64,000 nt of DNA, from NCBI GenBank assembly GCA_964401135.1, contig CAYNXC010000002.1:16457-80456 (forward strand), read 5' to 3'. Made by a program: the position numbers and the translations under genes. The stretch is from an uncultured Candidatus Saccharibacteria bacterium (GTDB taxonomy: Bacteria; Patescibacteriota; Minisyncoccia; Phycocordibacterales; UBA9988). Below the pieces are notes generated by a model. It was not told the origin of the DNA. It made no database searches and worked only from the letters and a program-made list of their open reading frames with translations. Positions 36,515-39,503 of the stretch are shown here, piece after piece. How positions within the stretch are numbered: the first letter of the stretch is position 1; every line of letters begins with the position of its first letter.

Positions 36515-36522
36515 TTATTTAA
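36515..36522. repeat. Target-site duplication TTATTTAA (left copy)
   Basis: Identical 8-mer directly abutting both transposon ends (the right copy is at 39496-39503). Confidence 0.85.
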
Positions 36523-36545
36523 GGGAACTATATACAATGTTACCC
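36523..36545. repeat. Left terminal inverted repeat GGGAACTATATACAATGTTACCC
   Basis: Matches the reverse complement of 39473-39495 at 21 of 23 positions. Confidence 0.88.
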
Positions 36546-36551
36546 TAAAAA

Positions 36552-37085
36552 TTAATTAGATTTTGGTTTGTCTAAATCTTCCAAAGAAAAGCCCAGGTCA
36601 GGAAAAATAAGATTTCTTAGATAAATACTCCCTGCAAAAAGAACGGTATTAATATCAACTCCAGACTGGAAAGCCCCTTGTTTGAGTGATTCTACAACAT
36701 CAGGACAATGTATTGGTAACTCCATCATTATCTCGGATATTACTTTCTCTGCATCATAAGGATTAGTCGTATTTTTACTTTGAACTAATTTTAGAAGTTC
36801 GTCTTTTTTTGCGTCAATAATTTCTTTAATTCCGCTATCATCTAAGATAGCTTGCCCTCTTGAGTTTAATTGTCGTGGAGAATTAGCAGGTGCAATTTTG
36901 TCTTTCCATAGAATATCCAGTTTAGGGAACATATCTGCCACTTTGGGTTTAATGTCTTTAATATCTTCCAGCATAAAATTTGTTCTTTCATCAATCCTCG
37001 CAATCAATTCACGAGTATTACCCAACAGGATAGCAGAAATCCAGTTACCTGCTTTTTTGGCTAAATTAAGGGCTTGTTGTTCCAT
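36552..37085 (-). CDS. Hypothetical protein (177 aa), transposon passenger of unknown function
   Basis: Intact ORF inside the transposon, divergent from the transposase. I recognise no motif. AT-richer than the rest of the element. Confidence 0.6.
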   Translation of the reverse strand: MEQQALNLAKKAGNWISAILLGNTRELIARIDERTNFMLEDIKDIKPKVADMFPKLDILWKDKIAPANSPRQLNSRGQAILDDSGIKEIIDAKKDELLKLVQSKNTTNPYDAEKVISEIMMELPIHCPDVVESLKQGAFQSGVDINTVLFAGSIYLRNLIFPDLGFSLEDLDKPKSN

Positions 37086-37197
37086 AGGATTATTACATTA
37101 CTAGTATATCAAAACGGCTGTTGCAAGTTAATACTAGTCAAAAAGTTACCCCCAATTATTACTTGACAACCCTATTGTGATCGTATAAGCTATAGGT

Positions 37198-38115
37198 ATG
37201 GATAGCCGATACAAAACCTTGGTAGAGTTCCTCGCCCACTTTAAGGATGAGGAAACCTGTCAAAAATACTTTGAGCAAATCCGCTTCTCCCAAGGCGAGT
37301 ATTGCCCTCATTGTAACCACAGTAAAATCAACCGCTTTTCAGACGGCAAACGCTTTCGCTGTGCTAAGTGCAAAAAGGACTTCACTATTAAGACCAAGAC
37401 CGTCTTTGGCGAAAGCAAAATCTCAATGCAGAAATGGTTTGTCGCAATTTACCTTTTGTCCGTCAATAAGAAAGGCATTAGCTCTATTAACCTAGCCGAG
37501 CAAGTGGGCGTTACTCAAAAGACCGCGTGGTTTATGGATCATCGTATTCGTAAAGCCTTGAAACAAAATAGCGGTCAGTTGTTTGGCACAGTAGAAATAG
37601 ACGAAACCTATATCGGCGGCAAGGAAAAGAACAAGCACGCCCACAAGCGAACCAAGCGCACCCAAGGCCGAAACACTTTGACCAAAACCCCTGTAATGGG
37701 AATGATACAGCGAGGCGGTGCAATGAAAGCCAAAGTGATAGATAATGTAAAGATGCGAACCTTGGAAAGTCTGATTATTGAAAATGTAAAAATTGGGACA
37801 CAGCTCTACACAGACGAGTTTTTGTCTTACTCCAAAATCGGCAGTCTCTTTGCTCACGAGGCCGTGTCACACGGCAAAGGCCAGTATGTAAAAGGTGATA
37901 GCCACTCCAACACCGCCGAGAGTTTTTGGGCATTGTTTAAGCGTGGCTACTACGGCACTTACCACAACATGAGTAAGAAGCATTTGCAGAAGTATGTGGA
38001 CGAGTTCGTGTATCGCTTTAACAACCGAGCCGTGGAGCTAGCCGATGTATTCACTGATGTCGTGGCGAATGTAGCGGGTAGCGAGAAGCTGGCTTATAAG
38101 ACTCTTACCGCTTAA
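37198..38115 (+). CDS. IS1595-family transposase (N-terminal zinc ribbon + ISXO2-like DDE domain)
   Basis: CPHCNH...RFRCAKCKKDFTIKTKTVF, then KWFVAIYLL...KGISS..LA..VGVTQKTAWFM.HRIR and VEIDETYIGGKEKNKH. Confidence 0.92.
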   Translation: MDSRYKTLVEFLAHFKDEETCQKYFEQIRFSQGEYCPHCNHSKINRFSDGKRFRCAKCKKDFTIKTKTVFGESKISMQKWFVAIYLLSVNKKGISSINLAEQVGVTQKTAWFMDHRIRKALKQNSGQLFGTVEIDETYIGGKEKNKHAHKRTKRTQGRNTLTKTPVMGMIQRGGAMKAKVIDNVKMRTLESLIIENVKIGTQLYTDEFLSYSKIGSLFAHEAVSHGKGQYVKGDSHSNTAESFWALFKRGYYGTYHNMSKKHLQKYVDEFVYRFNNRAVELADVFTDVVANVAGSEKLAYKTLTA

Positions 38116-38116
38116 T

Positions 38117-39025
38117 ATGTCCCCACGAGAACGCAAATATCACGAGGGGTTAGGGGTAGACTTTAATCAAGCTCTTGTCTCTATTGCTGGTGAGAACCGA
38201 ACCGAGCGGAGTATCGCCGCCCGACCATTTCTAAAGTGGGTCGGTGGCAAGCGGTCAATCCTGCCAGAGCTTCTAAAGCGGTTGCCGACCAAGTATGACG
38301 CTTACCATGAGCTGTTTCTAGGCGGTGGTGCGTTGTACTTCGCCGTCCAGCCAGAGGAGGCTTATCTGTCTGATGTAAACTTCCACCTCATCCTTACTTT
38401 CAAGGCGGTGCGAGATGATCTGGACAGCTTAATCCGTCAGTTAAAAATCCACGAACGATTACACAACAAGGAATACTATCTCAAAGCTCGCCAGAAGCTC
38501 TTTAAGGAAAAGGACACCACCAAACTGGCGGCTCTCTTTATCTACCTCAATAAAACTTGCTTCAATGGTCTTTACCGAGTAAACAAGGGGGGTGGCTTCA
38601 ATGTCCCGATGGGCGACTACAAAGACCCAAACATTTTAGACGAGGAAAATCTGCGTAATGCTTCAAAGGTTTTAGCGACCGCCGAGATTAAACAGCACGG
38701 CTTTGAGCATACCAAAATCTACAAAGGCGACTTCTACTATCTTGACCCGCCCTATCACGAAACCTATAGCGGTTATGATGGCTCTGGCTTTGGCGATGAA
38801 CACCACCGCAAGCTCGCCGAGTTCTGCAAACAGATAGACCAAAAGGGCAGTTACTTTATGCTCTCCAACAGCGACACGCCATTTGTCAGAGAGTTATATA
38901 AGGGCTATACTATTGAGCAAGTAGAGGCTTCACGAAATGTCTCTTGCAAAGCCCACCAGCGAGGCAAAGAAAATGAGCTTATCATCCGAAACTACACCAA
39001 TAACGGGGGGCGGACAAGCCAATAA
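38117..39025 (+). CDS. DNA adenine methyltransferase, D12 class (Dam-like)
   Basis: FLKWVGGKRSILPELL, AdoMet motif ELFLGGGALYF, catalytic DPPY (YYLDPPYHETYSGY). Starts 1 nt after the transposase stop. Confidence 0.9.
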   Translation: MSPRERKYHEGLGVDFNQALVSIAGENRTERSIAARPFLKWVGGKRSILPELLKRLPTKYDAYHELFLGGGALYFAVQPEEAYLSDVNFHLILTFKAVRDDLDSLIRQLKIHERLHNKEYYLKARQKLFKEKDTTKLAALFIYLNKTCFNGLYRVNKGGGFNVPMGDYKDPNILDEENLRNASKVLATAEIKQHGFEHTKIYKGDFYYLDPPYHETYSGYDGSGFGDEHHRKLAEFCKQIDQKGSYFMLSNSDTPFVRELYKGYTIEQVEASRNVSCKAHQRGKENELIIRNYTNNGGRTSQ

Positions 39026-39473
39026 AACGGGCAGTGTTTTAGAGCTATTTATCAAGCGACTTTTAGAGGACAACGGCTACACCGCCTTTCCTAACCACAA
39101 AGCCCAGCTATTCGCCAATCGTAAAACTGTCGGTGGTAAGCAATACTCTACCCAAGTTCCTTGTGGTACGAGTATCTACGAAACCCAGCGTAAATGCGAC
39201 TTCTTGATCATGAACCAAGACAAGTTCCCCGATGGACTGGTGATTGAGTGCAAGTGGCAACAGTCTACTGGCTCGGTAGACGAGAAGTACCCTTTTACCT
39301 TGTTTAACATCATCAAGATCGGCGTGCCAACCATCATTCTGCTGGACGGCAACGGCTACAAAAAGGCGGCGATGAAGTGGTTAAAAGACCAAGTGAACCC
39401 ACAGAGAGCCTTAATCGGCGTTTACAATATGGCCGAGTTTCAAGCTATGGTAAATAAGGGGTTTTTAGGTTAG
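38973..39473 (+). CDS. Small PD-(D/E)XK-type nuclease candidate (putative cognate restriction endonuclease)
   Basis: KCDFLI...DGLVIECKWQ matches D...(D/E)xK. It overlaps the methyltransferase 3' end, and its stop codon lies at the inner edge of IRR. The start (38973 or 38937) is uncertain. Confidence 0.55.
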   Translation: MSLSSETTPITGGGQANKTGSVLELFIKRLLEDNGYTAFPNHKAQLFANRKTVGGKQYSTQVPCGTSIYETQRKCDFLIMNQDKFPDGLVIECKWQQSTGSVDEKYPFTLFNIIKIGVPTIILLDGNGYKKAAMKWLKDQVNPQRALIGVYNMAEFQAMVNKGFLG

Positions 39474-39495
39474 GGTAACTTTGTATATAATTCCC
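39473..39495. repeat. Right terminal inverted repeat GGGTAACTTTGTATATAATTCCC
   Basis: Reverse complement of IRL with 2 mismatches. Confidence 0.88.
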
Positions 39496-39503
39496 TTATT
39501 TAA
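39496..39503. repeat. Target-site duplication TTATTTAA (right copy)
   Basis: Identical to 36515-36522. Confidence 0.85.

Follow-up and report, generated by a model that had tools for sequence, protein, structure and literature searches.

An IS1595-family transporter insertion sequence with a transposase, methyltransferase and nuclease operon in a Paceibacterota-like chromosome

The 64-kb chromosomal stretch analysed here (contig CAYNXC010000002.1, termed the window; all coordinates follow its numbering) contains a segment of four genes at 36523-39495 that raises the question whether a transposase merely lies next to restriction-modification (R-M) genes or whether both belong to one mobile element. 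The initial annotation, prepared from the letters alone, had described an IS1595-family transposon with a methyltransferase/nuclease pair and one further gene as cargo. Our analysis makes it likely that the segment is an autonomous transporter insertion sequence (tIS) of the IS1595 family, in which the genes for transposase (tnp), methyltransferase (M) and nuclease (R) form an operon encoding a DpnII-like R-M system, and that it inserted with an 8-bp duplication into a Paceibacterota-like chromosome of the candidate phyla radiation (CPR). The role of the R-M genes goes beyond that of passengers, since their promoter is that of the transposase gene, this promoter contains a GATC specific to R-M-bearing elements, and the methyltransferase (MTase) is fused to a peptide native to the insertion sequence (IS). 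The CPR-like character of the chromosome, already supposed in the annotation, was seen in 23S and 5S rRNA genes without an adjacent 16S rRNA gene, in the accompanying tRNA genes and in the annotation of close relatives of the window genes as Paceibacterota.

The segment of 2,973 bp is an intact element with well-defined ends. The left inverted repeat (IRL, 36523-36548, plus strand, GGGAACTATATACAATGTTACCCTAA) and the right one (IRR, 39470-39495, minus strand) match at 24 of 26 positions. The annotation had compared only the first 23 bp (36523-36545, GGGAACTATATACAATGTTACCC) with the reverse complement of 39473-39495 and counted 21 matches, which is correct; the repeats continue by three bases to …CCCTAA. 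On both sides follows the same AT-rich 8-bp target-site duplication (TSD), TTATTTAA, at 36515-36522 and 39496-39503. A search with a degenerate repeat pattern, allowing up to three mismatches, found only these two sites in the 64 kb and none in 100 dinucleotide shuffles. Inverted repeats and target duplication are not a product of chance.

In-silico deletion of 36523-39503, that is of the element and one octamer, joined 35667-42190 into an uninterrupted open reading frame (ORF) of 1,180 aa, in which the 5′ part of the target gene (35667-36522, plus strand) is in frame with the 3′ part (39504-42190, plus strand). The restored product is a secreted surface protein of the DUF2341/LamG type with the Pfam domains DUF2341, Laminin_G_3, fn3 and PG_binding_1, the last being a peptidoglycan-binding domain. 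A separate Logan assembly of run SRR10580904 was identical across 8,834 bp including both junctions. An assembly artefact, which the annotation had named as a possible refutation, is ruled out by this identity and by the restored reading frame. The perfect TSD and the lack of any further stop across the 1,180 codons speak for a recent event; the insertion into the target gene is real and probably recent.

The transposase gene (37198-38115, plus strand) encodes 305 aa. Its N-terminal zinc ribbon (CPHC…CAKC at residues 36-58) matched PF12760, Zn_ribbon_IS1595, at 5.8e-11, its catalytic domain covered the DDE_Tnp_IS1595 profile PF12762 completely (9e-44, positions 1-153 of 153), and the NCBIfam model transpos_IS1595 (NF033547) was matched at 5.8e-59 with 199.6 bits (cut-off 75). 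The family assignment by the annotation is borne out by these matches; DDE domain, zinc ribbon, short inverted repeats and an 8-bp target duplication are all found. A total of 7,806 homologues were retrieved at E<=1e-20, and the closest named transposases from cultured organisms, which are plasmid-borne and termed 'IS1595 family' or 'ISPepr2 family', are 39-43% identical. Members of the ISNwi1 subgroup in ISfinder have ends of the form ggnnatTAT, 8-bp duplications and lengths of 1.75-4.75 kb with passengers. The element end GGGAACTAT fits this consensus, and the element may belong to this subgroup.

The MTase gene (38117-39025, plus strand; 302 aa) begins 1 nt after the transposase stop codon. 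As annotated, it encodes a D12-class enzyme with a DPPY motif, which could be specified as an N6-adenine DNA methyltransferase of the Dam/DpnM family: it matched PF02086 at 6e-60 and the dam model TIGR00571 at 3e-85 (286 bits, cut-off 114.85), and its best match in the PDB was M.DpnII (2dpm, 3e-57). The gene for the restriction endonuclease candidate (38973-39473, plus strand) overlaps the MTase gene by 53 nt when read from the ATG at 38973, the start backed by homologues (166 aa; consensus MNSSSETT…), and its stop codon lies inside IRR. The PD-(D/E)XK character proposed for this ORF was substantiated by a match to PF20472, PDDEXK_11, at 2.9e-38, and the residues E24, D76 and E92-C-K94 are invariant across 55 homologues. 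The nuclease is a small enzyme of the PD-(D/E)XK type whose fold is that of a Type II restriction endonuclease and whose catalytic motif is intact. Against the DpnII profile PF04556 it reached 19.9 bits, below the cut-off of 23, and covered only profile positions 142-265 of 278. A weak DpnII or REase_II similarity was reported by both PADLOC and Pfam, one homologue carries the NCBI name 'DpnII family type II restriction endonuclease', and a sequence search against the PDB gave no match. Judged from these profiles the nuclease is related to DpnII, yet it is no full-length member of PF04556.

The annotation had left room for a modification-dependent, DpnI-like system. We abandoned this alternative: M.DpnII is the nearest relative of the MTase, and the weak resemblance of the nuclease is to R.DpnII, not DpnI, which makes such a reading unlikely, and a methyl-directed GATC enzyme cannot coexist with a GATC methylase. 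It is probable that M methylates GATC and that R cleaves unmethylated GATC. The same two genes also occur without a transposase: on plasmid p1 of Alicyclobacillus sp. TC (NZ_CP044435.1; locus L147, 3183-4492) a Dam MTase and a 166-aa PF20472 protein stand alone beside an Abi-family gene, the only nuclease match among 72,556 plasmids. The M-R pair is a unit older than its carriage by the IS.

Relatives of the element were collected by scans of one-genome-per-species contigs and of IMG/VR, which yielded 88 loci (numbered with the prefix L). The annotation had recommended a search for further copies with the same repeats, and the tnp-M-R triad was recovered at about 25 of these loci, with transposases 57-86% identical to that of the window; all transposase homologues in the range of 77-87% identity were followed by MTase and PF20472 genes. 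Every complete copy is bounded by the same 26-bp repeat, nearly all are flanked by an AT-rich 8-bp duplication (for example CTTATTAT, TTATCTAG, ATAGTTTT, GTTTTTGA, ATAATTTT, TAAAATTA and TAAGATAA), and the core element measures 2.39-2.43 kb. The triad lies within repeats and 8-bp duplications in L002, L003, L007, L008, L022-L024, L026, L029, L031-L035, L037, L040 and L061; no clean duplication was found at L043, L064, L103 and L116. Close homologues occupy unrelated genomic contexts, some of them phage-like (D5 primase, RusA, HNH, CHAP). The metagenome-assembled genomes (MAGs) with triad loci are labelled as Paceibacterota, Saccharibacteria, Moraniibacteriota, Bdellovibrionales, Gammaproteobacteria, Desulfobaccales, Planctomycetes, Acidobacteria and Verrucomicrobia, labels that may include binning errors.

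Several pairs of copies demonstrate movement. L003 and L005 are 100% identical across 2,411 bp at different sites, and L007 and L008 are 97.7% identical at different sites; since identical copies occupy different sites, the movement of the family is recent. The self-mobilising module proposed in the annotation is supported in this sense: all four ORFs lie within the repeats at 36523-39495, and the tnp-M-R unit recurs at many sites with duplications. L004 is an independent insertion only 5 bp from that of L003 in the same phage-like region, which suggests that this neighbourhood is an AT-rich hot spot. The IMG/VR phage contigs also contained solo repeats and pairs of repeats without a transposase that span 303, 533 and 1,235 bp (L131 907-1209, L137 660-1192 and L142 1060-2294); these pairs are probably non-autonomous derivatives resembling miniature inverted-repeat transposable elements.

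Across 19 elements the identities of transposase, M and R to the window proteins are correlated with r = 0.86-0.90, and the three genes were inherited and moved as one unit. No locus contains R without M. The sole element with M but without R, L057, is a decayed copy from which R and IRR are deleted. Relatives that lack both M and R (L030, L038, L039 and L062) have intact inverted repeats and 8-bp duplications.

The joining of R-M genes and IS extends to the protein sequence. Directly after tnp, R-M-less relatives (L028, L030, L039, L047, L050-L055 and L102) encode a basic peptide of 36-51 aa, ORF2, with the pattern …(R)GR(P/K)..K.H.PI…FDEVLGAIAKSKYK followed by a lysine-rich tail; several copies contain an AT-hook-like RGRP. 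In the R-M-bearing elements the first ~28 aa of the MTase (38117-38200 in the window) align with this peptide. This stretch is part neither of the Pfam D12 domain, which begins at residue 41, nor of the alignment with M.DpnII, which begins at residue 31, and the stand-alone Alicyclobacillus MTase is ~34 aa shorter. By these alignments the MTase is an in-frame fusion to the IS-native ORF2. Because its N-terminus is homologous to ORF2, the R-M genes are structurally integrated into the IS and not loosely carried.

A single promoter upstream of the transposase gene appears to drive the compact tnp-M-R operon. The claim of the annotation that the R-M genes form one co-oriented unit with the transposase gene agrees with the 1-nt gap, the 53-nt overlap and this common promoter. 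In the window it was placed at 37163-37191 (plus strand), with the -35 hexamer TTGACA at 37163-37168 and a GATC at 37179-37182 between -35 and -10. Its assignment follows from conservation: family members share a motif with the pattern TTGACAACCCT-N4-T-GATC-N3-(-10) whose distance from the ATG is fixed. With the T of TTGACA 35-37 nt upstream of the ATG, transcription is predicted to start at or next to the tnp ATG. In some elements extra plus-strand ORFs lie ahead of tnp, and there the promoter with the GATC precedes these ORFs.

All ~20 distinct lineages with R-M genes have the GATC at precisely this place while the adjoining spacer bases vary, and it is absent from 17 of 17 R-M-less relatives in which the -35/ACCC motif is retained. 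In a neighbour-joining tree the R-M-bearing elements mostly form one large clade, inside which L028, L044 and L046, without R-M genes and without GATC, are nested; the transitions of both characters are few but concordant. Apart from this site, GATC is depleted in the transposase genes (observed/expected 0.28). We take the pattern as a sign that a site methylated by the MTase of the element itself has been selected in the tnp-M-R promoter; it would lend independent support to the GATC specificity. At the position of the GATC, R-M-less promoters often contain a dyad ACCCTA…TAGGGT. The terminal repeat likewise has ACCCTA as its inner part, and one may speculate that the dyad hints at transposase binding.

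A second motif precedes the promoter in many relatives. A DnaA box (TTATCCACA, with at most one mismatch) lies within 60 nt upstream of the -35 hexamer in 19 of 40 family members, where 0.7 were expected and at most 4 were obtained in 500 shuffles. It occupies the same position in L003, L022, L024-L026, L028, L039, L048, L051, L052 and L116. The window copy has a degenerate DnaA-box-like motif, TTACCCCCA, with two mismatches at 37146-37154 (plus strand), where relatives show TTATCCACA or TTATCCCCA. A combination of Dam sites and a DnaA box near the control region at the element end is also present in IS50.

From these features the following mechanism may be proposed. M and R would constitute a DpnII-like Type II R-M system recognising GATC, which could stabilise the element by post-segregational killing of cells that lose it and could defend the host, or a phage that carries it, against DNA without this methylation. 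The promoter GATC would make the expression of tnp, M and R depend on the methylation set by the element itself: expression might be strong where the DNA is unmethylated, as on arrival in a naive cell, or hemimethylated just after replication, and weak where it is fully methylated. Whether methylation of this site feeds back on transcription of the whole operon, as proposed by analogy with Dam control of IS10 and IS50 and with the CfrBI promoter site, is, in our estimate, about evenly balanced. The MTase would get a head start from the gene order and from a coupling of R translation to the end of M, and the divergent gene at the left end would be transcribed separately as host-derived cargo in a variable slot.

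Several observations weigh against parts of this interpretation. The window -10 hexamer is ambiguous, as either TAAGCT (37186-37191, 17-nt spacer) or TATAAG (37184-37189, 15-nt spacer) may serve, and a consensus scanner did not call the operon promoter despite the perfect -35. The same scan marked a promoter-like site, TTGTCA-17-TATACT (10/12; 38883-38911), inside the 3′ part of the MTase gene and ~60 nt upstream of the nuclease start, from which the nuclease might be transcribed separately; sites of this kind are as frequent in the region as chance predicts. The GATC specificity is derived from family membership and promoter covariation, and some D12-class enzymes have other specificities. 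GATC is not avoided in the window (240 observed, 249 expected), and the tnp genes are depleted of it in R-M-bearing (observed/expected 0.28) as well as R-M-less (0.44) elements, only slightly more in the former. The association of R-M genes with the promoter GATC (Fisher's test, 6e-11) is a statistic that ignores phylogeny; as most R-M-bearing elements fall into one clade, it represents few independent events, about 2-3 losses. Since the GATC lies in the spacer and not in the -10 hexamer as in IS10 and IS50, an effect of methylation on transcription is not guaranteed. Doubts about the current activity of the window copy itself arise from its single occurrence in the window, from the record of an identical transposase on only one contig (same context) in the public collection and from the DNA identity of only 77% to the closest relative. 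The empty site that the annotation had asked for was not found for this insertion either: JGI metagenome contigs were scanned with 404 aa spanning the junction, and the matches were partial relatives only, none crossing the insertion point.

These last points would suit a different explanation, namely that the window copy is an immobile fossil with a dead transposase, whose R-M genes serve the host or are inactive and whose regulatory features are a legacy of the family. The two differences between the inverted repeats and the degenerate DnaA-box-like motif would fit as well. Two mismatches are, on the other hand, normal for the family, the three ORFs of the operon are full length with complete coverage by the hidden Markov models and intact catalytic residues, and neither the perfect TSD nor the 1,180 codons of the interrupted gene, free of added stops, show signs of age; we regard a fossil as improbable. 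Still less credible is a chance adjacency, in which the R-M genes and the 177-aa gene of the left end merely adjoin an ordinary IS, or a chimeric assembly with coincidental outer repeats and duplication. In its favour, the 177-aa cargo segment has a GC content of 34% compared with 47% elsewhere in the element, which would suit DNA from another source. Against it, the repeats are located at the outer ends only, no inverted repeat separates the genes and an internal IRL remnant was not significant. Excision exactly at the outer ends restores the target ORF, more than 20 relatives hold the R-M genes inside their repeats, a homologue of the 177-aa gene occupies this slot inside IRL in L116 and L025, and the Logan assembly is identical; we consider this explanation practically negligible.

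A third rival takes the operon as given and assigns it another role, with the nuclease as a transposition accessory that cuts the second strand at the ends and the MTase as an orphan regulator of transposition. Its model is TnsA, the PD-(D/E)XK subunit of Tn7. The small size of the nuclease (166 aa) without a sequence match in the PDB, its co-transcription with the transposase up to a stop codon in IRR, the IS-native N-terminal peptide of the MTase and the GATC in the transposase promoter would all be compatible with such a role. A nuclease of the TnsA type would be required by the transposase and would always accompany it, which is not what the family shows: L030, L038, L039 and L062 lack M and R and keep intact repeats and 8-bp duplications, so that the nuclease is not a transposition subunit. 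M and R were gained and lost together, the Dam and PDDEXK_11 pair on the Alicyclobacillus plasmid stands next to an Abi gene without any transposase, and the weak similarity to DpnII and REase_II points to restriction. We hold an accessory function to be very unlikely and retain the autonomous tIS with a DpnII-like R-M operon as the preferred reading.

How far does this element differ from known systems? The definition of IS with passenger genes as 'tIS' is based on the IS1595 family (Siguier, Gagnevin and Chandler 2009, via PMC11891212 and PMC7986276). The window element has in common with them the zinc-ribbon DDE transposase, repeats starting with GGG..TAT, an 8-bp duplication and non-transposition genes inside the repeats; the passengers named in these papers are regulators, methyltransferases and resistance genes, and no complete R-M pair. 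The window element differs further in that M and R share the operon and promoter of the transposase and that M is fused to an IS-native peptide. Transposon-like R-M units bounded by inverted repeats with 8-bp duplications have been reported (Furuta, Abe and Kobayashi 2010; PMC2853133). The closest case is the Neisseria gonorrhoeae unit of that study, which is bounded by 26-bp inverted repeats with an 8-bp duplication, comprises a Type IIG RM gene, an S gene and a COG3677 transposase-like gene, and likewise encloses R-M genes and an IS1/IS1595-type transposase motif in imperfect repeats. It is a single case with truncated Type IIG and S genes and a probably inactive transposase, and its mover was not known to the authors, whereas the window element has an intact transposase, a Type II Dam/DpnII-like pair and relatives at many independent insertion sites. 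With the DpnII system of Streptococcus pneumoniae it has in common an MTase closest to M.DpnII, a nuclease matching the C-terminal half of the DpnII profile and, by implication, GATC. It differs in that its nuclease of 166 aa belongs to PF20472 and lacks the N-terminal ~140 profile positions, that it has one MTase only and that the pair is co-transcribed with a transposase.

The regulatory arrangement likewise has partial precedents. The transposase promoters of IS10 and IS50 (Tn5) are controlled by Dam methylation (Roberts et al. 1985; Yin et al. 1988; both via PMC4265352). There, as in the window element, GATC lies within the transposase promoter, which implies a link to replication, through hemimethylation, and to arrival in hosts whose DNA is unmethylated. 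IS10 and IS50 depend on host Dam and have the GATC in the -10 hexamer, while the window element encodes its own MTase, has the GATC in the spacer, 3 nt upstream of the -10, and has no GATC in its inverted repeats. The CfrBI system has a single recognition site of its own in its promoter region, with methylation feedback (bioRxiv 10.64898/2025.12.04.692298; PMC3874152); there, divergent promoters serve M and R and methylation shifts the M:R ratio, while in the window element one promoter would serve tnp, M and R. Elements of this class are known; apparently new are the hard-wired operon of tnp, M and R, the promoter GATC specific to R-M-bearing members, the fusion of ORF2 with the MTase and the recurrence of cargo from one host gene family. 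In our literature search we found no paper describing this element family, nothing on PF20472 and nothing linking IS1595 to CPR or Patescibacteria.

The fourth gene (36552-37085, minus strand) occupies a variable 'left slot' between IRL and the promoter, with its stop codon 3 nt from the inner end of IRL. The annotation had seen in it a divergent 177-aa ORF without a recognised motif, and neither the protein nor 67 family members gave a match in Pfam, NCBIfam, PHROGs or PADLOC beyond coiled-coil noise; a search against BFVD gave no match. The predicted model (pLDDT, the predicted local distance difference test score, 86.8) consists of a 60-residue N-terminal helix and a compact novel all-alpha domain, and no convincing structural neighbour was found for it. 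A promoter-like site with an upstream TG, TTAACT-17-TATACT at 37103-37131 (minus strand), comes from the consensus scan only and is weak evidence, since such sites are as numerous as expected by chance.

The annotation had further stated that this gene completes the element. It does lie inside the repeats, but it is a host-type gene outside the conserved core. The left slot measures 100-140 bp when empty and 440-1,490 bp when filled, and the genes that fill it are unrelated. The 177-aa family comprises about 140 proteins, mostly from Paceibacterota, and the closest homologues (67-69% identical) reside in ordinary chromosomal neighbourhoods that differ from one another (yebC-X-ruvC, yqeY-X, trmD-X, groEL-X and MTase-X-folD) and show no inverted-repeat remnants beside the gene. 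In L012 and L020 a DnaA box also precedes the chromosomal homologue. Family members were found as cargo in the same slot and orientation in L025 (2385-2954) and L116 (4001-4537; element of 2,972 bp), with the stop codon 4-10 nt from IRL, and downstream of tnp in L062 (4903-5415). Compared with the window protein these cargo copies show only 37-61% identity; they lie at scattered places of the family tree, each closer to chromosomal homologues than to other cargo copies. Either one old capture followed by gene conversion with host copies or repeated capture would account for this. A capture by means of an outer IRL that left a relic near 37086-37152 was considered and rejected (best internal match 16/26, shuffle p = 0.37), and no IRL relic was found in other elements with a filled slot.

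Other left-slot cargo was noted as well. In L031, L033, L034, L040 and L061, all R-M-bearing, the slot encodes on the minus strand a Cys/His-rich protein of 98-139 aa with the motif C.HG..APD…SQAG..HKC..C. From a reading of the sequence, the cargo of L038 (3137-3873) is a putative PIN-like protein with a small upstream ORF, possibly a toxin-antitoxin pair, and that of L102 (2550-3867) is a second, unrelated MTase-like gene.

Taken further, the features of the family would allow for an undescribed and widespread group of 'self-methylating' IS, whose MTase is fused to an IS-native DNA-binding peptide, which would sense their own methylation state through the invariant GATC, often together with a DnaA box, in the single promoter of transposase, MTase and nuclease, and which repeatedly carry the 177-aa cargo. 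Transposition and R-M expression would then fire in a naive cell or after replication and stop once the DNA is methylated, and the recurrence of the 177-aa family in a dedicated slot would imply that this protein helps the element. We put this extension forward tentatively and consider it somewhat doubtful as a whole.

R-M systems are seen as selfish mobile modules, and documented cases of a simple IS moving a complete R-M pair are few and mostly anecdotal (PMC2853133). The present family is a clean and abundant case of about 2.4 kb, with three genes in one operon, in CPR bacteria, in MAGs binned to several other phyla and on phage-like contigs. If the promoter GATC does exert feedback, the element would be a minimal epigenetic switch that couples transposition, addiction and defence and that is directly testable in dam+ and dam- strains of E. 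coli. Through it, DNA methylation and gene flow become accessible in uncultured Patescibacteria, and it provides a functional context for PF20472, with the 166-aa protein as a 'mini-DpnII' candidate enzyme.

Two features of the surrounding chromosome may be added. The 23S and 5S rRNA genes lie within 57477-60635 with no adjoining 16S rRNA gene; such unlinked rRNA operons are common in CPR bacteria. The region 32504-35562, which directly precedes the interrupted gene, contains a tRNA-Ser gene (32504-32589), a gene for a DUF4238 protein (32610-33911) and, on the minus strand, genes for a large serine recombinase (33915-35225) and an XRE-type helix-turn-helix protein (35350-35562); this region may be an integrated island or a prophage remnant at the tRNA gene.

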